Below are positions 4,023 through 21,334 of a stretch of DNA of 64,000 bases, in pieces. The notes beneath the pieces were generated by a model, which saw nothing but the letters and a program-made list of their open reading frames with translations, searched no databases and was not told the origin of the DNA. Origin of the DNA: a virus (Duplodnaviria; Heunggongvirae; Uroviricota; Caudoviricetes). The position numbers were made by a program, and so were the translations under genes. The stretch is taken from positions 165,318 through 229,317 of IMG/VR virus record IMGVR_UViG_3300014208_000001, one strand, 5' to 3'. Position 1 is the first letter of the stretch, and every line of letters begins with the position of its first letter.

Positions 4023-4318
4023 AAATTTCCTACATTGTTAATGTAATCAACTGCTTCGTCGGCACATACGCCACACATACTCTCTGAATATCCTTCAACA
4101 GTATATAATGTTCTCGTCAACATTGAGCATTCACATTCATGAAATCCATATTCATCGACTAGTAAATCGACTATAGCATCTTTCATCACTACGCCAACTG
4201 CCATATCCAAATCGTCTGATGTGATAGTATCATCTATATCGTTAATAAATTCTTCAAATTGGCTCTTTGTGAAATTTATTGATAATGTGACTATTCCTTG
4301 TCTTGCTCTTTTAGGCAT
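4019..4318 (-). CDS. acidic Cys-containing hypothetical protein
   Basis: A 99-aa ORF with ECECS...CGVC, overlapping the DUF433 gene. Confidence 0.35.
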   Translation of the reverse strand: MPKRARQGIVTLSINFTKSQFEEFINDIDDTITSDDLDMAVGVVMKDAIVDLLVDEYGFHECECSMLTRTLYTVEGYSESMCGVCADEAVDYINNVGNL

Positions 4319-4563
4319 CTGATAATCTCCTGTTTGTTCTTGTTGCTGTACTTTATCGCGTCATTAATTTGAGATATTGTCAAAAATGGGTAACATTCTA
4401 ATATTTCATTAACTGATAGTCCCAATATTTTATACTTATAAATCACCCAAACTGGTATACGAGTACCTTTAATTGTGGCATCACCGCCACAGACTCCTTT
4501 AATATGTGTTATTGCCATTTTACGTATCTCAAATTTTTGAAATATAAACAATACCGCAAGCAA
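4291..4563 (-). CDS. DUF433 domain protein
   Basis: GVCGGDATIKGTRIPVWVIYKYKILGLSVNEILECYPFLTISQINDAIKYS matches the DUF433 consensus (G.P.I.GTRI.V...L..G.S.EEIL..YP.LT...I..AL.Y). Confidence 0.5.
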   Translation of the reverse strand: MLAVLFIFQKFEIRKMAITHIKGVCGGDATIKGTRIPVWVIYKYKILGLSVNEILECYPFLTISQINDAIKYSNKNKQEIIRCLKEQDKE

Positions 4564-4576
4564 ATGGAGAGTATTT

Positions 4577-5023
4577 ATGACAAGTTTGTTTTATTCAACA
4601 AACCGCGATAAAGATGATATAATATGGCCGATTATAGATATGTTCGCTGAAAAAGCACGCAAATCAAATGTTACAATATCTGTCGATATAAACGATTCAA
4701 AACATATCGCTATCATATTTGATTACGGTTATAGAATTAAAATATACACCGAATTAGATAATGATGGTACAGTTCTAACACCTGTTTATAGTATTTTAAA
4801 ATCATATACATTATTGAAATTCCAAAATAGCACTTTAAAATTGCGAGCACAAACAAATAGCATATTAGATATCAATGAAAATACTGTTAATAATATAATT
4901 GATGGTTCTTTATTGCATATCGAAGCATGGACTATGTTAGATCAATTACCTATACATGACCTTAAAGAGACAGTAAATTTTATGTTTAATTTATCGAATG
5001 ATATAACACAAGATCCGTTCTAG
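4577..5023 (+). CDS. hypothetical protein
   Basis: A 148-aa plus-strand ORF convergent with the QueC-like gene. Confidence 0.4.
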   Translation: MTSLFYSTNRDKDDIIWPIIDMFAEKARKSNVTISVDINDSKHIAIIFDYGYRIKIYTELDNDGTVLTPVYSILKSYTLLKFQNSTLKLRAQTNSILDINENTVNNIIDGSLLHIEAWTMLDQLPIHDLKETVNFMFNLSNDITQDPF

Positions 5024-5664
5024 ACAATCTCATTATCTATAGCTGTTTTCGCTATACTATTTGTTATACATGGTACACATTTTTTACAATTTTTACCATT
5101 GACTGGGTTTTCGCACCACCAAACTTTATTGTGTAATTTGTATGATTTTAAATTTTTTAATATGTCATATTTATGTTGCCATTCTAATGGTGCTATTAAT
5201 TTACCAGTACCGCCTCTAATTTTTTGCATATTGTCGAACATAGCATATATTTCATGCTTATAATGCCATACGCAATCGCCATGTATATATCCAACATATA
5301 AATCTTCATATGGTCTGAGATAATTCACTGCTATTGGCAACCATATCAGTGGTTGCGATAATCCATTATTTTCGCCTATACATACGTTGCCATTGTCTGA
5401 TGCTATGGTAACTTCGAAATTATGAAAAGTCCATTTAAGTCTATTGGTATATTTTATGAATTTATTACGCGCTAATTTATTTTCTTCTGCCGCGTTAATT
5501 CGGTCATGTATTATTGATATTGTTGATACTGTTTGATGAGGTTCTAATTTATGATTACCTCTTGTAACATATTGATCATATAATAATGTGTATAATAAAT
5601 ATGTTGAATCACAACCACCTGACCATAACACTAGCATTTTGATGCGCTCCTTTGAACGCATCAA
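5020..5664 (-). CDS. queC: QueC-like PP-loop ATPase (7-cyano-7-deazaguanine synthase family)
   Basis: N-terminal SGGxDS PP-loop (VLWSGGCDSTYLL). C-terminal 4-Cys zinc motif CENPVNGKNCKKCVPC, like QueC CxxC..CxxC. Confidence 0.5.
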   Translation of the reverse strand: MMRSKERIKMLVLWSGGCDSTYLLYTLLYDQYVTRGNHKLEPHQTVSTISIIHDRINAAEENKLARNKFIKYTNRLKWTFHNFEVTIASDNGNVCIGENNGLSQPLIWLPIAVNYLRPYEDLYVGYIHGDCVWHYKHEIYAMFDNMQKIRGGTGKLIAPLEWQHKYDILKNLKSYKLHNKVWWCENPVNGKNCKKCVPCITNSIAKTAIDNEIV

Positions 5665-5674
5665 ATACAGTCAA

Positions 5675-6388
5675 TTACGAATTAAAATATTTTTTGATTT
5701 CGTCAACTAACATACTTTCATAAACCACTTTTTCAAATTGTGGTTTAATTTTTGATTTTTCATTCTTTTTGGCGAATCTATCTTTAACTGATTCTTTAAT
5801 GTGCATTATCGCGCTGCGGACGCTCGGCTCTGATACCGCGTCCCAAGTGACGAAAGTATACCCTGGTAACACTCTATATGTTTCGTGGCCATGTGCTTCG
5901 ACCATTTCCATATCACCGACGCCGCGAGATGAGATCCCAACTCTTACTTTATGCTCGAACAATCCTTTGAGCATAGCCCCACATGGCATTCTATCTAGTA
6001 CTTCGGCTTCGCCATAGACTTTGCGGCCTTCTACCCAAATATTTGTGATTAAGTGGCTTATTCTATCCATGTGAATTTTGGCGTCTGCTGGATGGTCTAA
6101 TTCGCCAACTACTGCTCGTTGTGCGACATCTTCTCTGATATCATTGACAGCGGGTACTAATACTTCTTTAGTTGGGTAGACTCTTCCATTAGCGTTTTCT
6201 TTATCACCTTCTTGAAATATACCGGTTATTTTTAGAACATTGGCACCGTTCATACTTTCTTTTATTATTTTGGTTTCTAATGGTTGAAAGACAAATGTAT
6301 CCCTAATCATTTGCATACCAGTTGGTATTTCGCCTGTTTCAGCGATTAATCCACGATTGATAATTATTTGTGATCGTGTTGGAAGCAT
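5675..6388 (-). CDS. prohead core protease, gp21-like
   Basis: NGRVYP...GELDHP...GISSRG motifs reminiscent of T4 gp21 (S77 family). Sits in the head-morphogenesis neighbourhood. Confidence 0.55.
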   Translation of the reverse strand: MLPTRSQIIINRGLIAETGEIPTGMQMIRDTFVFQPLETKIIKESMNGANVLKITGIFQEGDKENANGRVYPTKEVLVPAVNDIREDVAQRAVVGELDHPADAKIHMDRISHLITNIWVEGRKVYGEAEVLDRMPCGAMLKGLFEHKVRVGISSRGVGDMEMVEAHGHETYRVLPGYTFVTWDAVSEPSVRSAIMHIKESVKDRFAKKNEKSKIKPQFEKVVYESMLVDEIKKYFNS

Positions 6389-6430
6389 AAAATTCCTTTC
6401 GTGATAATTTATATTTGCCTATATTTTTAT

Positions 6431-6970
6431 TTAAATTAATGATATTTTCTTTTTAGTACCATTTTTATTAGAGAAAGTCAATTCATCGAATTTATATTCT
6501 TTGCCAATCAATTTATGTAATGTGATATATTTACTACCTAGTCCTGGCTTTACATATGCTAAAGTTAAGTGAGGTTTATACACATATTTATTTGTTACTT
6601 CTGTTGAATCATTAATTAATTTATTTAATTTACATAGATCTTTACTTGTTACTTCTATTTTAACAACATCATTCTCATTAGATTTAAACAATGATATTTT
6701 GCCAAGTTTGATTTTGATGGGTCCGAATTTTTTGACAATATCTGATATGATACTAGAATTACTTGTATGTATTCCGTATAATACAGTTATATGAAAATCA
6801 GTTTCTTTGCCATCCGCTGCTAAATCATCGTCGTCTATATTATCGACTAATTTTTGTAATTCTTTGATTGGATTATCTATTGATATATCTGACATATCAA
6901 CTTGTGTACTACTATAATCATACTTACTCTCGGTTATTGCTTGTAATTTCATACAATATTTTCTCATCAA
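6431..6970 (-). CDS. 2H phosphoesterase superfamily protein (LigT-like)
   Basis: Two H-x-T/S-x motifs, HITVLY and HLTLAY, spaced about 90 aa apart. Confidence 0.45.
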   Translation of the reverse strand: MMRKYCMKLQAITESKYDYSSTQVDMSDISIDNPIKELQKLVDNIDDDDLAADGKETDFHITVLYGIHTSNSSIISDIVKKFGPIKIKLGKISLFKSNENDVVKIEVTSKDLCKLNKLINDSTEVTNKYVYKPHLTLAYVKPGLGSKYITLHKLIGKEYKFDELTFSNKNGTKKKISLI

Positions 6971-7337
6971 GACTATTCGATTGTGGTGCTGTTAATCCAA
7001 AAAGCAATTCTAAAAATTTGCTTACACCACTACATACACAAAATTTAACTCCAGAAACATATTTATATTTAAATATTAATAATATCTTATCGAAAATTTC
7101 AGGATCATTGTATGATATATAATATTCCATATATCCTCTACGAAACCAATGATAATATACTCCTGATATTCTAACCGAGTCACTACCGCATAGAATACAA
7201 ATATTATTAGCATATATCATATATTTATAGAATCGTTCATAGTACTGATCATGTACTTTAACATCATAATTATTACTTTTTAATTCTTCTGCTATTAAAT
7301 GTAACATATCAAAATTCATCGGTAGTATTAATCCCAC
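6924..7337 (-). CDS. hypothetical protein
   Basis: A 137-aa ORF. It overlaps the downstream gene by 47 nt unless that gene starts at an internal Met. Confidence 0.35.
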   Translation of the reverse strand: MGLILPMNFDMLHLIAEELKSNNYDVKVHDQYYERFYKYMIYANNICILCGSDSVRISGVYYHWFRRGYMEYYISYNDPEIFDKILLIFKYKYVSGVKFCVCSGVSKFLELLFGLTAPQSNSLDEKILYEITSNNRE

Positions 7338-7677
7338 TTATATGCCCGATAAATATAACCACTTTAATCATTAAAGCGATTGGAAAAAACAACATCATTG
7401 GTATGAACCATTTATTTCGTAATCGATATTTATATATAAATTTATCTATTTCGCTAAATATATCATCATGGTATTTCACATCAATATATCCATGCGCTCG
7501 ATCCCAAAACCATGTTATCGTTTCATATTTCATTCTTAAATAATCATTTTTAATTATTAACGTTATATTATAAACAATGATTCTATTACACACATCGCAT
7601 TCACATTGGTTATTACACGTGACCCTATACTTTTTTTCTATAAGAAAATCAATTATTGCTGATTTCATAATATTCAT
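7309..7677 (-). CDS. hypothetical protein, CxxC x2 plus C-terminal TM
   Basis: CNNQCECDVCNR motif, then a hydrophobic tail. Confidence 0.35.
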   Translation of the reverse strand: MNIMKSAIIDFLIEKKYRVTCNNQCECDVCNRIIVYNITLIIKNDYLRMKYETITWFWDRAHGYIDVKYHDDIFSEIDKFIYKYRLRNKWFIPMMLFFPIALMIKVVIFIGHISGINTTDEF

Positions 7678-8213
7678 ATATCACCACTACTCACATTTTG
7701 AAGTATATTAATCAAATAGTCATTAAATCTATTGGCTTTGTTTAACAATATTGTTAATATAGCGTGGGCCATATAAATAAATATAGTAACTATAGCAACA
7801 ATACTTAATAAAGAGATCATTATGGCTGTCATACTCATTCCGGCAATAAACATTATAGTATTGATTAATACATTATTTGTGGTACCGCATACTTTTTTAA
7901 AAGCGTATATGATAAGCAACATTTTATGCTTACATATAAAATTGAGTATTTTACTATCAAATTCTATATCAGTATATTCAATACATTCACTAGTTTGTGT
8001 TAAGTCTCCATTAATAAATTTAATATTGAAGGCGTTAATCATTATAAAATTAGGCTCAATATCTATTGATATATTATTTATTCTAAAATGCTGCTTATAT
8101 CCAACACTTATTACATTATTTATGCTACGTACTGGCCAACCGCTAGTTTTTGGTTCATAAATTATTTTGTTTTCATTTAATAAGTGTTCAATTATTTCAT
8201 GTATTTGAGCCAT
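7674..8213 (-). CDS. hypothetical protein with C-terminal TM helices
   Basis: A 179-aa ORF. Confidence 0.35.
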   Translation of the reverse strand: MAQIHEIIEHLLNENKIIYEPKTSGWPVRSINNVISVGYKQHFRINNISIDIEPNFIMINAFNIKFINGDLTQTSECIEYTDIEFDSKILNFICKHKMLLIIYAFKKVCGTTNNVLINTIMFIAGMSMTAIMISLLSIVAIVTIFIYMAHAILTILLNKANRFNDYLINILQNVSSGDI

Positions 8214-8248
8214 ACTGTGTGTTTCTTTTGAATATCAATACGTAAACG

Positions 8249-8275
8249 CCAACAGCCCCGAATAGGGGCTGTTGG
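8249..8275 (-). terminator. 11-bp perfect hairpin (ccaacagcccc-gaata-ggggctgttgg) just downstream of the large acidic gene
   Basis: Read directly from the sequence. No clear U-tract on either strand. Confidence 0.35.
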
Positions 8276-8297
8276 GCATTCGAGGTTACAATTTCAA

Positions 8298-11219
8298 TTA
8301 CTTATTTTTCTTGCCTGCTGGCTTATGTTTGGTACCAGTCCCATCATCTTGTTTTGGGCTTGTGCCAATACCTTCGAGTTCTTCTCTCGACCCATCAACT
8401 TTTGATTTTGCCGGGTCTGATCTTTTATCTTCATCAGCGTGTGATGTGTATTTCTTATTGCTTGGATCGGTCATATCACGATCTTCAGCCAATCCATCAT
8501 CTTCATCATCAAAATCAGGCATTTCTGATTCTTCTGAATCATCCTCAATCGGATTCACAGTGTCAACCGGCTTCATATCGCCTTCGACACCTTCAATATC
8601 ACCTTCAACGTCAGCGACGTCACCTTCGATAGCTTCTTCGTCATCTTCAAGCGATTCAACATCACCTTCTAACTCATCGCCTTCAATACCTAATTCATCT
8701 TCACCTTCAAGATCGCCACCGAATGGTTCTTCACCACCCATCATCTCATCTTCTGGTTCTGTAATAACTTGATCACCGTCGCTGTCGACATTGACGTCAC
8801 CGTCGACACTTACACTTATTGTTCCATCACTACTGGCTGTGATTGTGGCCACAGCTTCATCTAGTAATGCACGATCTTCTTCTGTCAGAGGAGCTAATTG
8901 CTCCAAATTTTCTGATAACCAATCACAGAATGGTTGGGCATCAGCTTTAGTGACTCCAGCGGCAGCTAATGCTGACTTTCTTAGCATTTTTGGCACTGGG
9001 ACACTAATATCACCGCTTTCATTCATAACTATGGCGTCGACATTAGCCGATGGAATACCATGGTCTAGAATAAAATTGACACCATTAGCGGTACCAGCAA
9101 CACCATCTTTTTGTCTAGTTGTCCACTGAATATCTTCAGAAGTCAACTTCTCAGACAATTTATTTATTGAAGACCGCTTATAGCCAGCCTTCTTAATTTT
9201 TGGGCTCTTGTATTGGTCTTCAACGACGCCCTCATTGCCAAATTCGGCATCGTTATCACAAGAGCCATCATCGCAATCTTCGTCTTCATCGTCATCATTT
9301 TCCCAAGGTTTCCCGCTCTCCATGAAAGCTTTAGAAACTTGTTCAATGGCGAAGAATGCTTTATTAGCTGGAATTGTCACTCCAACAGCTTCTATAGCCG
9401 CTTTGGATAATTCCGTCAAATTCTCATTTATTGTTGAACCATTTATATCGTTCTCTTCAGCTAATCGACCCATCATGGTGATGATTTTGGTCAATATTTT
9501 CTTATCGGTGATGACTGGCTTGCCATAATCAAACATCTGGCGAGCTTTTGTTTGTTTAAATGCATATGGGTCAAATGATTCGCCTAGTCCTTCGTCATTT
9601 CCAAACTCGGCATTGCCTGTCTGACCGCCACCAGCGCCACCTTGTAGCATATCTGGTCCGCCACCTTCTCCAAGGTCGAATTCACCAGTATCATCGATAC
9701 CCTCATCGTCATCGATATCTAGATCATCGCCAGCGAAATCGTCTTCACCACCGCCGCCACTGGTTCCACCTATTTGAATCAATGGTGAGTTGATCACAAT
9801 TTGTGGTGGCTTATCTTCATGGTCATCACCACCTAAATCTAGATCTTCGCTAGCATCGTCATTGCCCATGTCGATGTCTTTGGCGAAATTGTCGTCACCT
9901 GGGATCGCATCGAAATCTTTGAGATTTTCATTAGCCGACAACTCTTCTTGAATTGTAGCAATTAAATCTTCTGCTTCATAAATCGATGCGTCATCGAATG
10001 CTGGTTCTCTTAATCTTGTGATTAAGTCATTTAATCTCGATGATAGATCATGCGATTCTTTAATTCTTGGCGTTCTATTTTTCAGAACGTCAAGTGTCGT
10101 GGCTAGTGCTTCTGCAGTAACTTCACGGTTCGAGATAGCTTCGAAGATCATTTCAAGGAATCTATCATATGCACCGTTAAAATCAGATGCACCACTTAAT
10201 TTATCGACATTTTCAAGTAACGTGGCATGTTCAGAAGCGATAGCTATTTTCCGCCATTCTCTGACTATTGTGTTCTTATTGACTTTCAAGTTAGTCTTAT
10301 ATAGTAGTGATGCGGTATTTTTAGCCAGATCTTCGTTAAAGCATGCTTTAGTGGCTAGGGCATTTCCGACTAATGTATCGATTTCACTTCTTTTCAGAAG
10401 TGTAAATTCCTCATTTTCTTTCAGGAATGGTCCGACTAATTTAATTGCTTCTTCTATTTTATTGTCATAAATCAACTGTGCGGTTTCGTATATTCTGTTT
10501 TGGAAACCGGTTGATTTATATGCTTCTTTTGCAGCTTCTTTCATGTGTTTGCCAATGAGCTTCTTTGAGGCCCATTTGGTAACTGGCAGCTTGATTGGTT
10601 TTCCATCATTGAATGAGCATGATAGTGTACCACCATGTTCAACAATGACTTTATTATTCAGTGACTCGACGATGTATTGAACGATTTTTTCTTTTGCTTC
10701 TGCGGAGACAGCTTGGCCACCACTGACTTTGATTTTTCTGGCAACGCCATCTCTGGTTCTGACAATACCATGTTCTGGTATTATTTTGCCAGAGAATCTC
10801 TGGCTTGCTATTTTGTCAAATGCCGATGACATACCATTTTGATTATTACTTTCTATGGCATCTATTAATTGTAGACATGAACTTTCGAATAGTGATTGTT
10901 TTTCTTCTTCTATAATTTCTATTTTGACTATATTCTCGATTACGACTCGACCGCCTTTTTCACGGCGGAAATCTGCCTTGTAATAGTCATTTGTGTCAAC
11001 ATCTTCGATGAAGAGGTCACCACCGTACTGTTGATCGCGATTAATCTGCTTTAATCTGAAAGAGGCAAGTTTCCAATTCTTGCCTATTGAAGATCCCATT
11101 TCTGAGATCTTGCTTTCAAACAGAGCTTTTTTAGCGTCAACAGATTCATTGATACTAGCCAGAAACTTACGGGAATCCATTCTAGTTGGATTCACCACCG
11201 TGTTCTGATTCTTAGCCAT
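8298..11219 (-). CDS. large (~974 aa) highly acidic protein with Gly/Asp-rich disordered segments (candidate internal head/prohead core protein)
   Basis: The likely start is the internal Met at 11219, with an AAGGAG RBS 9 nt upstream. The ORF track's start at 11381 overlaps the divergent sigma gene. Has long DDxDLGGDD / EGDxEG runs. Confidence 0.55.
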   Translation of the reverse strand: MAKNQNTVVNPTRMDSRKFLASINESVDAKKALFESKISEMGSSIGKNWKLASFRLKQINRDQQYGGDLFIEDVDTNDYYKADFRREKGGRVVIENIVKIEIIEEEKQSLFESSCLQLIDAIESNNQNGMSSAFDKIASQRFSGKIIPEHGIVRTRDGVARKIKVSGGQAVSAEAKEKIVQYIVESLNNKVIVEHGGTLSCSFNDGKPIKLPVTKWASKKLIGKHMKEAAKEAYKSTGFQNRIYETAQLIYDNKIEEAIKLVGPFLKENEEFTLLKRSEIDTLVGNALATKACFNEDLAKNTASLLYKTNLKVNKNTIVREWRKIAIASEHATLLENVDKLSGASDFNGAYDRFLEMIFEAISNREVTAEALATTLDVLKNRTPRIKESHDLSSRLNDLITRLREPAFDDASIYEAEDLIATIQEELSANENLKDFDAIPGDDNFAKDIDMGNDDASEDLDLGGDDHEDKPPQIVINSPLIQIGGTSGGGGEDDFAGDDLDIDDDEGIDDTGEFDLGEGGGPDMLQGGAGGGQTGNAEFGNDEGLGESFDPYAFKQTKARQMFDYGKPVITDKKILTKIITMMGRLAEENDINGSTINENLTELSKAAIEAVGVTIPANKAFFAIEQVSKAFMESGKPWENDDDEDEDCDDGSCDNDAEFGNEGVVEDQYKSPKIKKAGYKRSSINKLSEKLTSEDIQWTTRQKDGVAGTANGVNFILDHGIPSANVDAIVMNESGDISVPVPKMLRKSALAAAGVTKADAQPFCDWLSENLEQLAPLTEEDRALLDEAVATITASSDGTISVSVDGDVNVDSDGDQVITEPEDEMMGGEEPFGGDLEGEDELGIEGDELEGDVESLEDDEEAIEGDVADVEGDIEGVEGDMKPVDTVNPIEDDSEESEMPDFDDEDDGLAEDRDMTDPSNKKYTSHADEDKRSDPAKSKVDGSREELEGIGTSPKQDDGTGTKHKPAGKKNK

Positions 11220-11266
11220 CTCTATCGGACTCCTTGTTAAACTAACATGACTATTAATAATTTTGA

Positions 11267-12316
11267 ATGGAACGTACTCTAATGAATCCATCATACATAA
11301 TTTATGGTGATTACAATCGTAATAACGGGTCAATGCTACTACGTAAAATACGTTCCTATGCCAGATTTGAAACAGACCCATATTATTTGGCTAAAGTAAA
11401 ACAAGCAGTAGCAGAACGAGTATATTTGGACGATGACTCAACTTTCGACGCGATAATAAAGTATCAAAATGGTGATATATCACAATTAGACCCATTGTTC
11501 AAAGCATATCATTTATTAATATTAAAATTATCAGCGGGCGCATTACGAATATACAAAAAACGAGGCCAAATAGACGAAATACTATCATTATCATATTCTA
11601 CATTCTTAACATGCTTAAAAAAATACACAGTATCTGAAAAATTAAGCAGATTTTCAACATATCTATCAACAGCAATATTACATAATATAATACATTATAT
11701 ACCATTTGAACACACCAGAATACGTTATAGAATACAACACATATCAGCTTTGGATAATATAATATTAAATGATTTATCTATAAATCCAAATCAATCTATA
11801 CACGATATATTACCAGATGATACTATTAAGAAATATTGGAAACATATTAATTATTTGACAATTGTAAACGTCTACAAACAAAATCACATACCAATTAAAG
11901 TGTCAGACCAACCATTAATGCATATTGATATTGATGAGTGCTTTAAAAATTTAAATGATAGACAAAAAAGAATATTAACACGCAGATTAAATGGAGATAT
12001 ATTGCATGATATAGGTATTGATGAAAATATCACCAGAGAAAGAGTGCGTCAAATAGAGGCACAAGCATTATCAAAAATCAAAAAAATTATCGAAAGCCAA
12101 AATAGATTACCAATTAAACCGATTAAATTACCTGAAAAACAACAAGTCATACTGTTAACATATGATGAAGCTAAAAAATTTATAAAATTACATTATATAA
12201 AATCTAGAGCCGCATATATACGCTTTGCAAGAATATGTGTACAATTACCTTTAAACCCACGTTCAACTTATAAGCATTCATGGAAAGGTTGGAAATCATT
12301 CTTATCTAGGAGGTAA
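11267..12316 (+). CDS. sigma-70 family RNA polymerase sigma factor with C-terminal extension
   Basis: Region 4.2 HTH LNDRQKRILTRRLNGDILHDIGIDENITRERVRQIEAQALSKIKK. Region 2-like YKKRGQIDEILSLSYSTFLTCLKKY. Confidence 0.6.
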   Translation: MERTLMNPSYIIYGDYNRNNGSMLLRKIRSYARFETDPYYLAKVKQAVAERVYLDDDSTFDAIIKYQNGDISQLDPLFKAYHLLILKLSAGALRIYKKRGQIDEILSLSYSTFLTCLKKYTVSEKLSRFSTYLSTAILHNIIHYIPFEHTRIRYRIQHISALDNIILNDLSINPNQSIHDILPDDTIKKYWKHINYLTIVNVYKQNHIPIKVSDQPLMHIDIDECFKNLNDRQKRILTRRLNGDILHDIGIDENITRERVRQIEAQALSKIKKIIESQNRLPIKPIKLPEKQQVILLTYDEAKKFIKLHYIKSRAAYIRFARICVQLPLNPRSTYKHSWKGWKSFLSRR

Positions 12317-14152
12317 ATCATATATAGTTATCTCTGAATCATCAGCATTTTCATAATTTGCTAATTCTTCTGATATAAGCGCTTTAGCGATATTTTTAGC
12401 GCCATTAGCTTCTTCAATATCAATAGTTGATTCAATCAGCACTAATGGGTCAGAATTAGTACCATAATTCGAATCATTAATATTATTACCCTTAGACAAT
12501 GCATCTAATTCATTTATAGTCATAAAATAATCGAATCCACTATTCAGTTCGCGTTCATTTAATTTCTCTAATATCTTCTTGCTACGTAATCTTTTATCTA
12601 TACGCATCTCATTGATTACACGTTTTTCACTTGCGTAATCATATCCTTCTAACGGTGGTTCAGTATCTTCTTCAGCATCAGGTGCTAATAAATCATTATC
12701 TTGCCCTGGAATTTCGGGTGTTTCATCATCCATACCAAGATCTAATCCTCCTAAACCGCCTCCACCGCCACTGGGTGCCATAGATTCGGCTTCAACATCT
12801 TTTAAATCTTCGATTTCATCCGGGGACAAGTCAGTGAAGTGTGTGACAATCCAATCTTTGGGGAACCATCCAAGATCTTTAAGAGTCGCCATGACATCAG
12901 CTCTTGTTTGCCATGTCTCAATTCGATATAATTCTTCGAGAGCTGATGTGGCTGTTAATGTGATTTCAAATCCTTTTAGATCTTCAACAGAATAACCACG
13001 TAGTGCTAAATGAACCAGCGCGACTTTAGTTAATCCTTTTGCCACTTCTCTCTGAATCCATTGTACTGCTTTTGCAAACTCAGCGTGGCTCTGTGATAAT
13101 GATTTTTCATTCTGTTCACCAGCGCCTTCTCCTAGTCCAACTCTGGCAAATGGAATCTTAAGAGGTGCTATCATTTTCTTTTTGAAATATTCGATATCCG
13201 CTATTTGATCTAAATTTTCGGCTCCTGGTAACGAATCAACATCAGGGCCAGTACCATCAGCTCTTACAGGTAAAAAATAATCATCTTCTTGAATAAGAGG
13301 TGAATATCGCTCGTCAAATGTACCGGTCGTTGGGTTATAGAATCTCTGTCTTTTCATAGTCCTTGCAATAGCTGCTATATATTCAGGTATTTGATTAGTT
13401 GGTATATTACCAACTGGTATTTTGAATTTCCTTCTCTCAGGTGCTCTAGTAATACGATATATCAATGCACTATCTTCCATTAATCGCAATTGTTTAAATG
13501 CTTTACGTCCACCATCTAATATACTAATACCATATGGGTGATATATATTTTCAAATGAGGTTAATCTAGTATGCATCACTTGCCATGGATGCATGAATAT
13601 TGGCTCTGGGTATATTGGATCTTGATAATAAAATCCAACCAAATCACCAAATCTTGTTTCAATTCTTGTAAAATTATAGATATTCATAAATCTTAAACTT
13701 GATACACATGTTCTGTTTTCATTTGGTATTATTTCAGCGCCAAAATCGCCATATTTACATAAATATCTAATTGTGGGTCTACAATGTGTGTCCCACTGTA
13801 GAGTGTTAAAAAATAATTCTTCTAATTCTCTTTTTAATCGTTTATTTCTTGCTCTTATTATTATTGTGTGCTTGCGTTCTGAATCAACTAAACTAGCTTC
13901 GTCAGCATATAAATCTAATGCTAAACTAATTTCACCTGTTTGTGCCATTAGTTCATAATCTCTATACCTTTCTAATCTATTTATTTGAACATTGGTTTGA
14001 TCTAGAATGGATTGTTGATCCAAATCTAAATTGCCAGTATGGGCAATTCGATCAAGTTGAGTTTGGTCTTGTAATGTTCTTTCTGATTGAAATATATTAT
14101 GATTTTTAATCAGAGTTCGAACACGATCAAACACAAACCAATTGCTGGGCAT
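12302..14152 (-). CDS. portal vertex protein, gp20-like
   Basis: LIYRITRAPERR...DSLPGAENLDQI aligns with T4 gp20 VIYRITRAPDRR...DTLPGADNTGNM. AGGAG RBS. Confidence 0.9.
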   Translation of the reverse strand: MPSNWFVFDRVRTLIKNHNIFQSERTLQDQTQLDRIAHTGNLDLDQQSILDQTNVQINRLERYRDYELMAQTGEISLALDLYADEASLVDSERKHTIIIRARNKRLKRELEELFFNTLQWDTHCRPTIRYLCKYGDFGAEIIPNENRTCVSSLRFMNIYNFTRIETRFGDLVGFYYQDPIYPEPIFMHPWQVMHTRLTSFENIYHPYGISILDGGRKAFKQLRLMEDSALIYRITRAPERRKFKIPVGNIPTNQIPEYIAAIARTMKRQRFYNPTTGTFDERYSPLIQEDDYFLPVRADGTGPDVDSLPGAENLDQIADIEYFKKKMIAPLKIPFARVGLGEGAGEQNEKSLSQSHAEFAKAVQWIQREVAKGLTKVALVHLALRGYSVEDLKGFEITLTATSALEELYRIETWQTRADVMATLKDLGWFPKDWIVTHFTDLSPDEIEDLKDVEAESMAPSGGGGGLGGLDLGMDDETPEIPGQDNDLLAPDAEEDTEPPLEGYDYASEKRVINEMRIDKRLRSKKILEKLNERELNSGFDYFMTINELDALSKGNNINDSNYGTNSDPLVLIESTIDIEEANGAKNIAKALISEELANYENADDSEITIYDLPPR

Positions 14153-14190
14153 AAATAACTCCTCAAAATATATTTACAGGATGATCAATT

Positions 14191-14730
14191 ATGAATAGAT
14201 TCATCAAATTGTCTGATTTAGTAAAATTTATCGCTGATATTATAAAATACTTATCACGTAAAAAACCAATCCCCCCAGAACCAAAACCAATTCCAACCCC
14301 GGAACCACCTCCAAAGCCAACCCCAATTCCACCTCCAGAGCCAACCCCAGAACCCACGCCTAAAACACCAACCGAATTAGCGATTGATCAATTATTATCA
14401 TCACACAATAAACTACGGCAGACACCATTAACCATTAATACTAAATTAACGGCAGCAGCTCAAAAACATGCCGAATGGATGGCGTTTAATAATACATTAT
14501 CGCATGTCGGTGATAAAAGATCACAGCCATGGACAAGAACATCATGGGAAGGCTATGAAAATGGATTCGTTGGTGAAAATATCGCATTCGCTTACTCATT
14601 AGACCAAGTGATGCCAATGTGGTTACAATCACAAGGACATAGAAGAAATATTTTAGATTCTAATTATAAAAACATAGGAATAGGTATTAAAAATAATTAC
14701 TATTGTGTTGTATTTGGAGGTGGTGATTAA
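14191..14730 (+). CDS. CAP/SCP (PR-1, YkwD-like) domain protein with Pro/Thr/Glu-rich linker
   Basis: HN..R, GENIAFAYS and GHRRNIL..NYKNIGIGI motifs, plus a PEPKPIPTPEPPPKPTP linker. Confidence 0.6.
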   Translation: MNRFIKLSDLVKFIADIIKYLSRKKPIPPEPKPIPTPEPPPKPTPIPPPEPTPEPTPKTPTELAIDQLLSSHNKLRQTPLTINTKLTAAAQKHAEWMAFNNTLSHVGDKRSQPWTRTSWEGYENGFVGENIAFAYSLDQVMPMWLQSQGHRRNILDSNYKNIGIGIKNNYYCVVFGGGD

Positions 14731-15149
14731 TTAGAAGTCCATTCAGATTCTATTTTTTTATTAGACAATTGATTAAATTGATTAAATTCATCCTCACATA
14801 AATTAAATTCTATATGCCTTTTATCAATATATCTAACATTGGACATCACAACCATATCAACCATACAATAATATAATACATACGTGCCATTTAAATCTTT
14901 ACCAGACAATTCACAATATATTGATTGAGTCGGCTTAAAATTTTTTATCAATCTATTCTTTATTTCTTCTCCGCAATTTTCACAACAATCGATACTTTTA
15001 ATAATACGTTCTAATAATATTGATCTTATTTCTGGCTTATGATTTACAACATTTACTTTTCTAAAATCCATTGAATAATATGTAAATTGCGATTTAACCT
15101 CTATTTTACACAAGTCACATACTATTCCATCTTTTGATTTATTAAGCAT
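14727..15149 (-). CDS. Cys-rich hypothetical protein (CxxC ... CCxxC)
   Basis: A 140-aa ORF coupled to the terminase stop. Confidence 0.4.
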   Translation of the reverse strand: MLNKSKDGIVCDLCKIEVKSQFTYYSMDFRKVNVVNHKPEIRSILLERIIKSIDCCENCGEEIKNRLIKNFKPTQSIYCELSGKDLNGTYVLYYCMVDMVVMSNVRYIDKRHIEFNLCEDEFNQFNQLSNKKIESEWTSN

Positions 15150-18100
15150 TATTCACCTTTTCGTTTAAAATAATATTTTGGTGGTGTTACAATAGGACCA
15201 TTTTTAGACATTGGTATAGCACCTAACTGATAAGTAAATGCATCTAATTGACGCTGAATATTTTGTTCAGGCATTTCATCTGGCGTGCCAACAAATGGTA
15301 AAAATGGATTACCAGTCGCATTTACTAATTGTTTATGGTATTGAACCATTTGATCATCAGTAAAGATAGTAGGCCCAGCCAAACTAGTAAAATCAGAAGA
15401 TGATAACACCGGCCCAGCAGAAACCGATGAAAGTGCAAACGAATCATTAATAGCCACCAACGCTAACGCAAAAGCCATAACAAGATCGTCAAAATTATTA
15501 GCACCTTCTTCAGCTTCAGTCTTTCCAGTATCCCTACCAGATTTGTCTCTTTTTCTAACATACGTATTAAATTGCTTCAATAATCTCCTGCTATAAACTT
15601 TATACCCAGCATCATCTTCGTCTCTAACATAATCTATTAATAACCTGTTCAAAATCGGTTTAGATGCCATAGTAGTAAAGAAACCATATCTATCAATTTT
15701 CATAGCTCGCTGTGTACTACTCGATGGTCTAGGTTTATCATTGATGTCCTTTTTGCGCCATATATTAGGATAATTAAATTCATGTCGTAGAGCATCTATT
15801 AAATTATCACCACCATTATTGCGTTCTAATACTAACATAGCATTGTTATAATATCTTCCCAAATAATCAACAAATCGTAAAAATTGTTTTGGTAAGCATC
15901 TTACCATCATTTCAGCTACTTGTTCCATTGTTATTGCATCTAATATTTCTAATGCATGATAATCTTTACCTTTACCAGTTGCAAAGTCGACACCCATAAC
16001 ATATATATGAGGTGGTTCACCTGGTGATATTATTTGATTATTTCGCATTTTTGCTGGTTTTGCTTGTATCGGATGCTCCCACACCCACAAACCAGATTCA
16101 GATTCTTGCTCATTGAAACTTAATTCTTCTGATTCTCCTGTGCTTGGATTTGTGTATAATATTGTATTAGTGACTCTATCTGGTTCTTTCATAGTTGTAG
16201 CTAATTTAGTTAATACTGATCTAGTTATAACTGTATTACCAGAGCCAATAAATGATGCTAAAACTTCCTGGTTAAATTTCCATCCTTCACCTTTTTCTTG
16301 CAGACCGCGCCATTGTTCTTCTAACCATGGTGACCAATATGGACCATATTTATCTTCTTCTTCTTTAGTGGTACATTTTCTCAATCCGTCTCTTGGTGCT
16401 ATCCGTACTAATTCTCTACTTAAACTATCTCTATATTCAATATTCCAATCCATATCCCACCAATTAACACATATCGGATTAAATACATTATCGCCAGCTT
16501 CAGCTTCTGTCCACGTGCCCCAATACCAGTTGCCGACTCCATTCGTATTCGCGTGTACAGTGCAGTCACCGATAAAAGTGTGTGTGTTTGGTAATGTGAA
16601 ATCATATACTTCCGCTTCAGAATCTTCTAATGATTTAACCTCATTGAACCAATCATATTCTAATAATTTAATAAGAGAATCATAAGCGTCATTACCTTCA
16701 TATGAAATCTTACTCATAAACGAAGCGAGACGATCTTTAGTTATCCTTGATCTTGATCCATAAAGAACATTTGGGGCTAATCCCAATTTAGTCATTTTAG
16801 CGATTGAAAGATCAGTTGTGTCTTTTAATTGTTTTAAAAGATTCTTAACAACTGGTGGCATTAACTCAGACCAAACTGACGTCTTATTTTTTTGTAAAGC
16901 TTGTTTTCTACCCAAATCAAAACCAATAAGATCATAAAACAAATTTGTAAAATTGTTAGAAACATATAATCGATATGATTCACGAGTATCATGTGTAGTG
17001 GTCTCACCATTATTACGTTTAAATGACGTCATACCAGGCGGCGATATTTCTAAATATGTATGTATTCCATAATTAAATAATAACATCCTAACTTGTTTAA
17101 TAAGTTTTTTAGATGTAGAAGTATAACAAACTTGCCCTTTTCTCGTTAAAGCAGCACCATCACCATCAAACAATCCTCTAAGAAAATTCCTTATTATTGG
17201 TTCAGAACATTGTAATAATCTTTTTGGTATAGTTTTAAATGGTGCTATTGTACATTCAACACCAAGATATTTAAGAAATCTAACAAACATAGGTGATGAA
17301 CATACCGTAACATAATCTTGCCCTTTTCTTCCTCTATTCCAATTAATATTGCCCCAAGATTCGCATCGATCTAGAACTTTAGAATCACCACACGACAATA
17401 CCACTTCAGCAGTAATTTTACCATTTTTTCTAATTGTTTCTCTTACATGACCTTCAGCTATAATAACACCAAGCATATAAGCAATATCTTCATCCATCTT
17501 TTTTATTTGAAAAATTGGTGAGTTTAAATTATCATCTCTATAACTCTTATTACGATCTTCATAATTTAATATATCATTATTTCCGAAAACCATTTGCCCA
17601 GCTTTAACTGGCAGGAAGTCTCCGATCTGTAAATCTTGAATATATTTATTATTTATAGTCCCATTAGATGACACAACTGGCAATTTGTGTAATAATGATG
17701 CTTCGAATTCATAGCAACAAGATGTTTTAACAATTTTAGTTGCTTCTTTTGGTCTTTTATAAAATTTAGTAGCTGGTTCTAAACCATCAATCCCAACAAT
17801 ATCTGGCCCCTTATAATCAGTATGATAATAACCATCATCAAAGCCATCGTATTCATGAGGTGCTAAATCTTGTATTTCACATAAACCGTTTGCAGTATTA
17901 ATTAAAGTATCTGGTGCCACACATGTACTAATTACTATTGTACTACCACCGTGAGTCATGGTTGAATAACCGGCTGCCCACATCACATCCATATCTTGAA
18001 TAAATGCTGCTTCGTCTATTATATTCAATGATGATGCATTTGATCGTAAAACATCTGGGTGTGATGTCATAGATTTTATAACTGTACCATTAGTAAATGC

Positions 18101-19516
18101 TATTGCGTGTTCATTCCATCCTTTTCTGCCTGTGGTGCCTATACGTGGTGCCCATATATCTTGCATCCACTCTGGTAAGTTATTAAATAAGAACGCCACA
18201 TTCTCTTTCAGAAATCCTTTGGCGTCTTCATCTCTACGAGAAACGATTAATATTGTTTTATTTGGGTTGAACATCGCAAACCATAATGCGAATGCCCCAG
18301 ATACTTTCGATATACCACAGTTATGAACAACAGCCCCATCAACAATATAATTATTATATGGTGGAACATTTAAATCATAAACACATCCATCACCTTTAAC
18401 ACGTTTAATAGATTTAATATCACCTTTTTCTCTATTAAAAAAGAATCCCTTAGTTATTTGATTACGTGGCTTTTTACCATAAATACCAATATATTGTACA
18501 AATCTATTAAAATCATCTTTACCAATTATACGTAATTTTGGTATTGTTGTGGTCGTGCGTGGATAATATACAGCATTAATATTAAATCTAGTTAATAATT
18601 GCTTCAGCTGATGAAGCATTGTAACCGATTCTAATCCTATTCCAGCTTCATTACAATTGCCGCCAGAATACCATCCATCACCGGCAAACATCCTATTAAT
18701 TAATACTGCTATTGATTTATTGTCCCATTTAAACACATCGCTCGGTATTGTTTTATCAGCTTTTATCTTATTAAGTATATTATATCGATCTGCCCAACAC
18801 GTAGCAGCAACACATGTAGTTTGCAATCTATAATTCTTAGTCGATTCTGGTTTAAATCCACTCTCATGTTTTCGTATTGTTAATTGTAATCCGAATCTAT
18901 TTTTAAAACATTTTTGATATTCTAATAAATATTTCCAACATGAATTATTAAATGTGACAAATCTGCCAGTTGATCCATCAGTCAATAAGTATCCTAATAA
19001 TATTGGATCATTATGATTAGGAGTATATCCATATCTTTCAATATCATTGATTTCTATTAACTTCTTATTGCCTATCAAATCACCAGCTTTTATATATCCA
19101 TTATTTGTTAAATACTCATGGTCATATGTGGCTATTGATCTATGTCCAGATTTGGATCGCACTTCTACAAGATTATCAGAAATACCATTATTATAAACAT
19201 CATTTACTGGTACTGCTTCTATGGCGTTGGTATGATAATTTAATGTATAAACCAAATCACCTTTATTAATCTGATCTATGCGTTTTGGACCATTTGGTCC
19301 CCAAACCATTTGGTCACCAGCAAAACACTGTCTACATTTTTTAAATATATTAAATCTATGCTGTTTAAATGCATTCAACGCCATTTTCTGATAGCTGAAT
19401 AATTTAAACGGTAATATACCAGCAGACGGATGCTTTACTTTACCAAAATTCTCTAAAAACCACGATATCGATTGTCTAGATCGTAAAATAACTTGTTTTT
19501 GAGTATCATTCATCAA
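15149..19516 (-). CDS. terminase large subunit, gp17-like, interrupted by two inteins
   Basis: The extein sequence FKKCRQ/CGISKVSGAF...IIDEAAF...IVIST/TNGVGNWYW parallels T4 gp17 SRQLGKTT...IYIDECAF...IIITTTPNGLNHFYDIW. The nuclease half HALEILD matches gp17 HALHIID. Confidence 0.9.
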   Translation of the reverse strand: MMNDTQKQVILRSRQSISWFLENFGKVKHPSAGILPFKLFSYQKMALNAFKQHRFNIFKKCRQCFAGDQMVWGPNGPKRIDQINKGDLVYTLNYHTNAIEAVPVNDVYNNGISDNLVEVRSKSGHRSIATYDHEYLTNNGYIKAGDLIGNKKLIEINDIERYGYTPNHNDPILLGYLLTDGSTGRFVTFNNSCWKYLLEYQKCFKNRFGLQLTIRKHESGFKPESTKNYRLQTTCVAATCWADRYNILNKIKADKTIPSDVFKWDNKSIAVLINRMFAGDGWYSGGNCNEAGIGLESVTMLHQLKQLLTRFNINAVYYPRTTTTIPKLRIIGKDDFNRFVQYIGIYGKKPRNQITKGFFFNREKGDIKSIKRVKGDGCVYDLNVPPYNNYIVDGAVVHNCGISKVSGAFALWFAMFNPNKTILIVSRRDEDAKGFLKENVAFLFNNLPEWMQDIWAPRIGTTGRKGWNEHAIAFTNGTVIKSMTSHPDVLRSNASSLNIIDEAAFIQDMDVMWAAGYSTMTHGGSTIVISTCVAPDTLINTANGLCEIQDLAPHEYDGFDDGYYHTDYKGPDIVGIDGLEPATKFYKRPKEATKIVKTSCCYEFEASLLHKLPVVSSNGTINNKYIQDLQIGDFLPVKAGQMVFGNNDILNYEDRNKSYRDDNLNSPIFQIKKMDEDIAYMLGVIIAEGHVRETIRKNGKITAEVVLSCGDSKVLDRCESWGNINWNRGRKGQDYVTVCSSPMFVRFLKYLGVECTIAPFKTIPKRLLQCSEPIIRNFLRGLFDGDGAALTRKGQVCYTSTSKKLIKQVRMLLFNYGIHTYLEISPPGMTSFKRNNGETTTHDTRESYRLYVSNNFTNLFYDLIGFDLGRKQALQKNKTSVWSELMPPVVKNLLKQLKDTTDLSIAKMTKLGLAPNVLYGSRSRITKDRLASFMSKISYEGNDAYDSLIKLLEYDWFNEVKSLEDSEAEVYDFTLPNTHTFIGDCTVHANTNGVGNWYWGTWTEAEAGDNVFNPICVNWWDMDWNIEYRDSLSRELVRIAPRDGLRKCTTKEEEDKYGPYWSPWLEEQWRGLQEKGEGWKFNQEVLASFIGSGNTVITRSVLTKLATTMKEPDRVTNTILYTNPSTGESEELSFNEQESESGLWVWEHPIQAKPAKMRNNQIISPGEPPHIYVMGVDFATGKGKDYHALEILDAITMEQVAEMMVRCLPKQFLRFVDYLGRYYNNAMLVLERNNGGDNLIDALRHEFNYPNIWRKKDINDKPRPSSSTQRAMKIDRYGFFTTMASKPILNRLLIDYVRDEDDAGYKVYSRRLLKQFNTYVRKRDKSGRDTGKTEAEEGANNFDDLVMAFALALVAINDSFALSSVSAGPVLSSSDFTSLAGPTIFTDDQMVQYHKQLVNATGNPFLPFVGTPDEMPEQNIQRQLDAFTYQLGAIPMSKNGPIVTPPKYYFKRKGE
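16547..17923 (-). mobile_element. intein 2 (459 aa, LAGLIDADG) in terminase before the T(P)NG motif
   Basis: Starts CVAPDTLI and ends TVHAN, followed by Thr. Has MLGVIIAEGHV and LRGLFDGDGAA motifs. Confidence 0.75.
18320..19327 (-). mobile_element. intein 1 (336 aa, LAGLIDADG homing endonuclease) in terminase Walker A P-loop
   Basis: Starts CFAGDQMVWG and ends VVHN, followed by Cys. Has LLGYLLTDGS and FAGDGWYS dodecapeptides. Codon boundaries were verified on the DNA. Confidence 0.8.
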
Positions 19517-20901
19517 TTACTCCACATACTATCATTTCTATCTTTATTTACCTTCAAATATGTATCATATCTAAAAGCACTATTTTTATCATCAATATCA
19601 AGATAATGCTGTCTCAATTCTGGCCATGGAGCTTTAATATTTTTAAACATATATTCAATTTGATCTTGAAATTCTCCATATTTAATAATAAATGGCTCGG
19701 CTTCAACCCATCTAAATCCCAACTTATGGCAGTAGTCAATTATCGTATTTATTAAATTTTTAACACCATATGGTAATTTATTATAAATCGATGGTTCAAA
19801 TGATTCAAGCAATGATTTCTCTAATTCTGGCCACCGTTTAAATTGTCCAGTCTTATTAACAATATCTTCTAAATAAACTTTATCAAAATATTGTATAATA
19901 TCGCCAGAATACCACCTTATGATCAATTTTTCAAATATTGGCACTCTACCATATTTAATAGCATATTTAATAGCATATTCACCCTCCCTAGATATCAACC
20001 TTTCTAATTTAGGACATCTCTTCCCAATCATCATAGAATATATATATGCCCAACTCATTTTATTATAATTAATCAATACTTGCTCATAATCACTATTTTC
20101 TCTTCTGTAAACTTTAACCATATAATTTCTAAGCATATTTAATACATCAGTCAATGGCCCCTCAAAATCAGTAGGTTCCTGTGGTACAGATAATTCTTTC
20201 ATTGTTTTTAAAGGAAACGTTGGAACTAAATCGACATACTCAGTCAATCTGACGGCATCATCATTAACATCCATTATCTGATCAAAATCAGATGTAAATT
20301 GGATTATTGGCTTATTACCATCCCAAATTTGATATATATGATCATATTCATGTATATAAGTACCGGCCATACAATCATCACCATATGACCCTCTAGTACA
20401 CCACTTAGTCCCCTCGCCTAACTGCTTCAAAGAATCAACATTATCAATTTCAAATGACCTATAATTACCCCTAGTGGCTACTAATTCAACTCCTGGTAAT
20501 TTAGTGGGATCTAGAATATCAGATCCGCCTTTTCTTTTACTTGTCGATCCTATTAATGGTTCAATTGCATTTTCTAAATCATTTAATGTTTTATAACTGA
20601 GTAAGTCTTTATTTGGTAATCTTGGTTTAACGCTATGAAAGTTAGTTAATGTTTCTTTTATTCTTGGGCCGTCTTCTGGGAGTCTTATATTGCTTTTAGC
20701 CCATTGTCTGATGACGAATTGTGAATATTTTGGATTTACTGAGTATTTGTTTATTATTTCTTTTATTTGTTCTGGTGGTATATTATTTCTAGTTGATATA
20801 ATATTTATTAGGTCTTCTACTGTTTCTAGCAATGTTGATAATTTCATAAAATAAAATTTACTTATTCGCCATACTTTTAAAATATTTTTTGATAAGCGCA
20901 T
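19513..20901 (-). CDS. hypothetical protein upstream of terminase (position of a small-terminase gene, but 462 aa and no recognisable motif)
   Basis: ATGA overlap with the terminase start. Confidence 0.4.
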   Translation of the reverse strand: MRLSKNILKVWRISKFYFMKLSTLLETVEDLINIISTRNNIPPEQIKEIINKYSVNPKYSQFVIRQWAKSNIRLPEDGPRIKETLTNFHSVKPRLPNKDLLSYKTLNDLENAIEPLIGSTSKRKGGSDILDPTKLPGVELVATRGNYRSFEIDNVDSLKQLGEGTKWCTRGSYGDDCMAGTYIHEYDHIYQIWDGNKPIIQFTSDFDQIMDVNDDAVRLTEYVDLVPTFPLKTMKELSVPQEPTDFEGPLTDVLNMLRNYMVKVYRRENSDYEQVLINYNKMSWAYIYSMMIGKRCPKLERLISREGEYAIKYAIKYGRVPIFEKLIIRWYSGDIIQYFDKVYLEDIVNKTGQFKRWPELEKSLLESFEPSIYNKLPYGVKNLINTIIDYCHKLGFRWVEAEPFIIKYGEFQDQIEYMFKNIKAPWPELRQHYLDIDDKNSAFRYDTYLKVNKDRNDSMWSN

Positions 20902-21334
20902 CTGGAATAGTAGCTAATACTATATCATTATTTGCCATAATTGTATATGGCGAATTACTGGCATGCGCCCAATTACTTAGTTGTTCTACGCTTAATTTGC
21001 CATATACTTCAATAATTCTATTTATTAAAGCTTCAACAAATGGGTCTTTAACCATTTCAATATATTGTCTAAATTCATCGTCGGCATAAATTATATCAGG
21101 TAAATATATCTTAATTAATTTATCACCATAATTAATCAGTCTATCATAGACTATTTTACTAATCGGCCCATATTCATCGGCAAATATGCCGCACGACAAT
21201 AATGGGGTACCATTAATCGCTAAATGCCATCCATGGGCAGCATATAATAATCTTTGCAATTTTAGATTACTTATATATCCATGACCCATATAATGATGTA
21301 TAAACATATTAGCTACATGTATTGGGTCATGCAT
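20858..21334 (-). CDS. Panacea domain (DUF4065, SocA-like) protein
   Basis: KLQRLLYAAHGWHLAINGTPLL resembles the DUF4065 signature KLQKLLYYAQGWHLA. Confidence 0.5.
   Translation of the reverse strand: MHDPIHVANMFIHHYMGHGYISNLKLQRLLYAAHGWHLAINGTPLLSCGIFADEYGPISKIVYDRLINYGDKLIKIYLPDIIYADDEFRQYIEMVKDPFVEALINRIIEVYGKLSVEQLSNWAHASNSPYTIMANNDIVLATIPDALIKKYFKSMANK

Follow-up and report, generated by a model that had tools for sequence, protein, structure and literature searches.

The locus described here raises the question of why a jumbo phage with T4-like head genes should carry, next to its portal gene and on the opposite strand, a gene for a CAP domain mounted on a proline-rich stalk. An HMMER scan with the CAP domain alone recovered 21,365 cluster representatives at E <= 1e-3 (1,684 at E <= 1e-10); bacterial-type CAP domains are thus very common, with essentially one experimentally studied member, DalA. 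A stalked CAP protein in a phage ties this very large and little-understood family of bacterial domains, in a testable way, to the manipulation of the cell wall by phages. The reading that we favour, with a probability of roughly 0.4, is that the gene encodes a membrane-tethered accessory protein of a T4-like jumbo phage clade, directed at the envelope or at peptidoglycan.

The window, the whole stretch of 64,000 nucleotides that was analysed (positions 165,318 to 229,317 of the viral record IMGVR_UViG_3300014208_000001), belongs to a jumbo phage of ~356 kb with T4-like portal, prohead protease, baseplate and sheath genes. This phage has no close cultured relative, the nearest cultured-phage portal being 32% identical. 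The window has the same sequence as the end of a 355,685-bp ENA contig. The CAP protein is present on a 355,863-bp contig as well, and identical copies of it lie on a 355.7-kb contig and two Logan contigs. Window positions 4191-20971 match contig L001 (ERZ27249449 k141_213174) at 100% up to the end of that contig and the window continues beyond it, from which it follows that the ~356-kb assembly is circularly permuted or complete.

Nearly all genes of the window lie on the minus strand, and the CAP gene lies on the plus strand (Table 1). An initial annotation of this DNA had placed the gene between the portal and terminase genes and opposite to both. The strand assignment holds, and both genes are neighbours, but a 140-aa Cys-rich ORF intervenes before the terminase; searches of Pfam, PHROGs, NCBIfam and PADLOC assigned this ORF to no family. 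An AGGA ribosome-binding site precedes the CAP start codon by 10-13 nt. The box listed on the portal side of the intergenic region comes from visual comparison with four relatives and is a putative promoter only. A GTA[AG]ATA-like box was seen in the same way before the portal gene in all five phages compared, with no clear rule for the CAP gene. Promoter and terminator scans gave no usable signal, chance matches in AT-rich DNA being dominant, and TAAATAT-type boxes were found before only four genes.

Table 1. Coordinates of the stalked CAP gene, its parts and its neighbours in the window
Feature	Position	Strand	Basis or remarks
Stalked CAP protein gene, complete, 179 aa	14191..14730	+	ATG start, TAA stop
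N-terminal amphipathic helix and basic cluster, residues 1-25, MNRFIKLSDLVKFIADIIKYLSRKK	14191..14265	+	AF2, hydrophobic moment
Pro-rich (PEPKP/PTPEP) linker, residues 26-61	14266..14373	+	composition, DNA repeat
CAP/SCP domain, residues 62-179	14374..14727	+	Pfam, AF2, Foldseek
T4-like portal, divergent conserved neighbour	12302..14152	-	PF07230, 6.1e-69
Divergent intergenic region, 38 nt, between portal and CAP start codons	14153..14190	.	both ribosome-binding sites; TAAATATA box on portal side
Cys-rich ORF, 140 aa, two CxxC pairs	14727..15149	-	convergent with CAP gene, stops overlap by 4 nt
Large terminase with two inteins	15149..19516	-	intein Pfams (LAGLIDADG and splicing domains), terminase PHROGs

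The arrangement portal (-), CAP (+), an optional ORF and terminase (-) recurs in five phages with GC contents of 34-60%: the window phage and four relatives, here labelled L061, L014, L015 and L063. L061 (GC 38%) is the closest, with 90% identity to the window in the portal, 61% in the CAP protein and 42% in the 140-aa ORF, in whose place the other three relatives carry different genes. Portal identity to the window is 60% in L014 (GC 49%), 62-77% in L015 (GC 56.5%, with inteins in both portal and terminase) and 66% in L063 (GC 60%, terminase 53% identical). Because the synteny spans this range of base composition, the CAP gene is long conserved and not a recent moron; its constant position shows that it stayed in place as its lineage passed between hosts that differ widely in base composition. 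Recent horizontal insertion was considered and ruled out by the synteny together with a third-position GC content ameliorated to the genome (0.24, against 0.18-0.20 in the neighbouring genes). The 61% identity of the CAP protein to its counterpart in L061, compared with 90% for the portal, shows that it diverges faster, at a pace resembling that of proteins at a host interface. At the strain level, the CAP genes of L002 and L003 differ by one synonymous change, a variation too low for a test of selection. In four of the five phages the CAP stop codon overlaps that of the next minus-strand gene by 4-6 nt, and a scan detected no terminator between the CAP gene and this convergent gene; overlapping stops without a terminator suggest that the CAP gene is expressed apart in time from the late operon, and its expression probably lies outside that operon.

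Several other features of these genomes were recorded. In relatives of the window phage (L015 3016-7776 and 8441-14113; L063 4776-7889 and 9485-12508) the portal gene carries inteins as well, and the 802-aa terminase of L014 is intein-free. A 349-aa sigma-70 region-4 protein is encoded on the minority strand of the window (11267-12316, +) between a 1027-aa acidic protein and the portal; its ORF overlaps the 3' end of the portal gene and is absent from that position in L014. The 1027-aa protein (8298-11381, -), which lies between the prohead protease and the portal and contains extremely acidic Asp/Glu/Gly-rich tracts, is 49% identical to the product of L014 1600-4362, has no family match and may be a scaffold or internal head protein. 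In a ribonucleotide reductase of 1128 aa (35870-39256, -) the match to the PHROG profile is broken into two parts, and this break suggests a further intein insertion. A group of genes at 26911-32768 (-), with a GC content of 0.40-0.41 against about 0.33 elsewhere, comprises a PspA/IM30 homologue (26911-27645; PF04012, 3.3e-13) and two SPFH/Band-7 paralogues (29414-31012 and 31230-32768), and looks like a membrane-repair or membrane-organising set. Its presence fits, weakly, with a phage that manages host membranes, as a co-occurrence only, 12-18 kb from the CAP gene. In L014 a membrane protein matching phrog_200 adjoins the CAP gene; that phage's SPFH-like gene next to CAP has no pairwise similarity to the SPFH genes of the window.

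The identity of the globular domain is clear. Residues 74-170 match Pfam CAP (PF00188) with an E-value of 1.2e-13 and 52.3 bits against a gathering cut-off of 21.1, PHROG 16914 matches the protein at 1.5e-10, and the AF2 model (pLDDT 92.8) has the alpha-beta-alpha sandwich fold of the CAP superfamily, so that the initial assignment as a CAP domain is borne out by profile and fold alike. Foldseek searches of the PDB place bacterial CAP structures in the lead (4ifa, 1.5e-8; 4d53, BB0689, 8e-8, TMt 0.79; 4h0a, SAV1118), followed by GAPR-1, with a probability of 1.0 for 4ifa, 4d53, 4h0a and 1smb. CAP proteins carry the signatures CAP3 (HNxxR) and CAP4 (G[EQ]N[ILV]); both are present here, as HNKLR (72-76) and GENIA (128-132), and are conserved in both family alignments. 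The domain also contains GHRRN at 149-153 and a single cysteine, at 172. Invariant positions are N73, A90, H105, E129, H150 and G163 across 16 homologues, and H72, R76, H93, H105, R116, Y122, E129, N130, W144, S147, H150 and N153 across 29 proteins of the same architecture. As judged from the alignments, the His/Glu/Glu/His tetrad of the CAP cavity is represented in part, by conserved H72, E129 and H150; no second glutamate was picked out, H93 and H105 being invariant instead. The domain is of the bacterial type, and in the alignments the conserved His/Glu/His residues of its pocket are intact.

Placement within a named bacterial family is another matter. The best NCBIfam match is the DalA model NF052539, with 59.5 bits where the cut-off is 200 (positions 53-154 of the 169 in the model); for the YkwD model TIGR02909 the score is 54.9 bits and the cut-off 171. 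Relatives score 36-84 bits with the DalA model, and phage relatives 46-92 bits with the YkwD model. Since both cut-offs are missed, the protein belongs to neither family: the earlier label "YkwD-like" stands in the loose sense of a shared fold and motifs, and fails as a family assignment. Because these models are matched far below their cut-offs, peptidoglycan binding can be transferred as an analogy only, and peptidoglycan or an L,D-transpeptidase would, on that analogy, be the target of the CAP domain. The PADLOC defence and counter-defence profiles did not match the CAP protein, and searches of PHROGs, the PDB (Foldseek) and BFVD revealed no sequence or fold likeness to known decoration proteins.

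Ahead of the CAP domain lies the stalk, described in the initial annotation as PT-rich and here delimited as a 36-residue linker with 20 Pro, 6 Thr, 4 Glu, 3 Lys and 3 Ile, encoded by a degenerate 24-nt DNA repeat (3.4 copies). If it forms a polyproline-II helix, it would span about 11 nm. The sole non-CAP profile matches of the protein are weak ones to models of the TonB Pro-rich spacer (residues 22-60, E 0.002-0.007), and no second Pro-rich stalk of similar kind occurs among the other proteins of the window. On the antisense strand of the repeat (14273-14320, -), just upstream of the portal gene, G/T-rich hairpins scored as terminator-like and are probably a by-product of the repeat. At its other end the protein finishes in GGGD and lacks the (L/V)PGG(I/L) motif. 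Such a tail, 15-25 residues past the CAP domain, is conserved in many helix-anchored CAP proteins of the 29-sequence alignment (e.g., L014 6607-7167, L015 7860-8444 and L065 3881-4408).

A secretion signal at the N-terminus is usual for the CAP superfamily, though not universal, and the absence of an obvious one had been remarked on before. The hydropathy values agree: the Kyte-Doolittle maxima of the protein are 1.02 (19 residues) and 1.31 (11 residues), compared with 3.3-3.5 for the signal peptides of homologues, no charge-free hydrophobic run exceeds six residues, and there is no lipobox. Hydropathy is far too low for residues 1-25 to be a transmembrane helix or a signal peptide, nor is the segment of the SAR (signal-anchor-release) type, in which basic residues precede a weakly hydrophobic, Gly/Ala-rich transmembrane stretch, given its 19-residue value of 1.02 and charges throughout. 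AF2 instead predicts a helix at residues 7-21, which is short and combines a high hydrophobic moment (0.78) with a net charge of +5 (Heliquest-type D 2.39). In the 29 helix-type proteins the helix averages 17.7 aa, with a moment of 0.61 and a charge of +2, and D exceeds 0.68 in 79% of them; these properties are comparable to those of the FtsA membrane-targeting sequence. The helix of the window protein is thus predicted to bind membrane. Basic residues come after the helix in nearly all proteins of the helix-stalk-CAP architecture, and with basic residues on that side the positive-inside rule would leave the CAP domain in the cytoplasm.

At the syntenic locus itself the anchor varies. Amphipathic helices are found in the window phage, L061, L014 and L063, and the L015 orthologue begins MRRRVLPGAIGAGLLGGLLWWL, that is, RRR and a Gly/Ala/Leu-rich 20-mer that fits the SAR type, its 19-residue hydropathy of 1.53 comparing with 1.75 for the SAR domain of T4 RI by the same calculation. 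Other phage copies carry lipoprotein or Sec signals, with lipoboxes in L012, L013, L020 and L027. The anchor is therefore variable across the relatives, as far as N-terminal sequences reveal it.

The same picture emerges in the wider family. The best 150 relatives were classified heuristically by their N-termini, and 86 of these are small proteins. About 37 of the 86 share the layout of the window protein, without a signal and with an aromatic amphipathic helix of 12-25 aa, a Pro-rich linker and the CAP domain (e.g., MEWFKNLLNKIFRIKTPKPIPTPEP and MALLDWFRNLFRPKPPTPPPP); another 25 have a lipoprotein signal, a Sec signal or a transmembrane anchor, often followed by a Pro-rich linker. In the 64 multi-domain relatives CAP is paired only with RTX, S8 (subtilase), Big_2, SLH, M23, T9SS-tail and dockerin modules, and cellular homologues carry signal peptides or transmembrane anchors; by these sequence features the relatives are extracytoplasmic in character. 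Every context of a helix-type protein that was examined is phage or phage-like, including IMG/VR contigs of 106-262 kb, the 595-kb huge phage LR756511.1 (GenBank) and metagenome contigs with phage genes. A search for the family motif AQKHAxWM in 185,579 species (one genome each) gave only 30 matches, mostly in Planctomycetota, and the Planctomycetota carriers have signal peptides or lipoboxes in the inspected N-termini where these were readable. The exception, L030 (5989-6489, on an Anatilimnocola sp. chromosome), has the order reversed, with CAP followed by a Pro-rich linker and a C-terminal amphipathic helix (RVGLIEWLLSLLGIK), which marks the helix as a movable module. This gene probably lies in a prophage, a phage-type ParB-methyltransferase being nearby.

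The rarity of CAP domains in phages, which the initial annotation had stressed, is true of reference collections (matches in 8 of 50,697 reference phage records and 3 in BFVD) and does not extend to large phages from metagenomes, in which a profile from a 13-sequence alignment subset found 23 IMG/VR loci and to which the 595-kb phage can be added. Phage CAP genes were known before; for the helix-anchored, stalked form and for the conserved portal-adjacent locus, literature searches turned up no description. Annotation of neighbours in the other phage loci (PHROG, Pfam) was largely empty, and guilt by association outside the syntenic clade gave nothing. In L066, which has a lipoprotein-type CAP gene (53% identity), an i-spanin-like ORF lies alongside (831-1244, -), its product having a transmembrane segment at the N-terminus and a long coiled-coil region; from the opposite strand this ORF overlaps the CAP gene at its 3' end.

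What argues for an envelope-directed accessory protein is the common logic of these variants. All consist of an anchor, a rigid spacer and a CAP domain, which points to a protein held on a membrane with CAP about 5-11 nm away, at the wall layer. In the mechanism that we propose, the amphipathic, basic-flanked helix of ~20 residues would act as an in-plane anchor holding the protein on the membrane surface, and the rigid Pro-rich rod of 36 residues would be a spacer of about 10-11 nm, like those of TonB or of Pro-rich lipoprotein tethers. The stalk would present the CAP domain to peptidoglycan and the outer-membrane layer, where it might bind peptidoglycan or a wall-remodelling partner, as does DalA, its nearest characterised relative. 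The site of action would be the envelope of the infected cell and not the virion, and the CAP protein may alter or stabilise that envelope during a long infection. Amphipathic helix, signal-anchor and lipoprotein signal would be interchangeable anchors among the relatives. A further step, which we regard as doubtful, would make the signal-less, helix-tethered CAP proteins a phage-specific class of envelope effectors that mimic or hijack DalA-like scaffolds of peptidoglycan and L,D-transpeptidases, would control wall cross-linking, outer membrane-peptidoglycan tethering or division in jumbo-phage infection, and reach their site by an unconventional, helix-dependent route.

Because an export signal is lacking and basic residues follow the helix, three other placements stay alive. 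The protein might, as the initial annotation also suggested, be a lysis-phase effector; like canonical endolysins it would build up in the cytoplasm and gain access to the wall only through holin lesions. The helix and CAP domain would then act on the outer membrane or on its links to peptidoglycan and help to break up the envelope, as a spanin or disruptin accessory would. The missing signal peptide and the cationic, amphipathic helix would suit this, as would the altered tethering and vesiculation that follow loss of DalA and, on inspection of the sequence, the i-spanin-like ORF flanking the lipoprotein variant in L066. We nevertheless consider it unlikely: in none of the five syntenic phages was a holin, endolysin or spanin recognised next to the CAP gene, that gene is on the strand opposite to the late structural genes, and orthologues with a signal-anchor or lipoprotein signal need no holin. 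Display on the virion, as proposed in the initial annotation, would have the helix dock on the capsid or neck, with the stalk holding CAP some 11 nm out for binding to surfaces. The CAP gene keeps its place by the portal, head-protease and terminase genes, and this position would suit a head-associated protein equally; exposed proteins typically have Pro/Thr-rich stalks, and in the lineage of L004 and L060 the CAP gene comes last in a run of large, co-oriented unknown genes next to a head module. What weakens this reading most is the signal-anchor-like N-terminus of the syntenic L015 orthologue and the lipoprotein or secreted form of other phage homologues, since proteins of these kinds cannot join virions assembled in the cytoplasm; the extracytoplasmic character of the multi-domain cellular relatives tells against it as well. 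Phages whose structural genes are unrelated share, moreover, the same generic helix, and a lipid target accounts for this better than a specific site on the capsid would; the gene runs antisense to the late operon and the stops overlap, and inspection of the N-terminus found no T4-type (L/I)xE prohead-protease site. We therefore think virion display quite unlikely. An internal head protein with a capsid-targeting sequence was also considered and was rejected on the absence of an (L/I)xE site from the N-terminus and on the opposite strand of the gene.

The basic residues found after the helix in almost every protein of this architecture would also be explained if the helix lay on the inner leaflet of the cytoplasmic membrane, in the manner of MinD, FtsA or GAPR-1, with CAP binding an intracellular ligand such as an anionic lipid or lipid-linked wall precursors. 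The single cysteine means that no disulfides are needed, and GAPR-1 is among the structural matches; against this, all relatives with a recognisable targeting signal point outward and a rigid 10-nm spacer has no obvious use at that face, so that a tether there appears improbable. That the gene is a dispensable passenger (moron) near mobile elements, inteins and homing endonucleases, and plays no role in the lytic cycle might be argued from the inteins in neighbouring genes, from the HNH homing endonuclease immediately upstream in L004 and from the regulatory, moron-like region that holds the CAP gene of Bacillus phage Staley. We find this hardly credible for a gene that keeps the same position in five phages across GC contents from 34 to 60%, with an intact ORF, invariant pocket residues and codon GC3 ameliorated to the genome (0.24 vs 0.20). 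The envelope-directed accessory protein remains our preferred reading.

A conserved, fast-evolving phage CAP protein with swappable anchors would be a compact handle on the envelope ligand of this domain and could reveal how large phages manage or breach the cell wall. PspA and SPFH proteins are encoded in the same genome, so that a wider set of genes for envelope maintenance may be present in this phage clade. Should virion display be true after all, the protein would be a new kind of capsid or neck adhesin.

Among known systems, the outer-membrane lipoprotein DalA (RSP_1200) of Rhodobacter sphaeroides is reported to bind non-covalently to peptidoglycan and to co-precipitate with L,D-transpeptidases, Pal, MltG and FtsZ; cells that lose it have fewer 3-3 (mDAP-mDAP) cross-links and outer membrane-peptidoglycan links, and they show outer-membrane blebs, vesicles and sensitivity to envelope-active agents (PMC10470522; PMC5442454). 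The phage protein resembles it in being small, with a bacterial-type CAP domain and a predicted N-terminal membrane tether, but DalA is cellular and has a lipoprotein signal, whereas the phage protein combines an amphipathic helix with a long Pro-rich rod and lacks a signal. YkwD-type CAP proteins (TIGR02909; 4IFA, 4H0A, BB0689 4D53) share the fold, the HNxxR, GEN and GHRxN motifs and the lack of a disulfide network, and differ in being secreted or lipoproteins. A CAP gene with no known role has been noted in Bacillus phage Stills (PMC4541274). The LysM-CAP proteins of Stills and Staley are likewise phage-encoded, but combine a signal peptide with LysM, come from the regulatory region of temperate siphophages of Gram-positive hosts and are 35% identical over 44% of the query. 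The resemblance to the TonB spacer, in which (E/K/T)-P repeats also follow directly on a membrane anchor and precede a globular C-terminal domain, is compositional only, the phage protein having neither the TonB C-terminal domain nor a transmembrane helix. The targeting helices of MinD and FtsA are similarly short and aromatic-rich, with comparable length, hydrophobic moment and positive charge, but they are C-terminal and act on the cytoplasmic face, whereas membrane binding by the phage helix is a prediction. GAPR-1 (PDB 1SMB) is a signal-less eukaryotic CAP protein that is myristoylated and held on the membrane by its N-terminus. It shares with the phage protein the CAP fold, the absence of a signal and, as predicted for the latter, an N-terminal hold on the membrane, and differs in its eukaryotic origin, its myristoylation, its lack of a stalk and a sequence identity of 22-24%.
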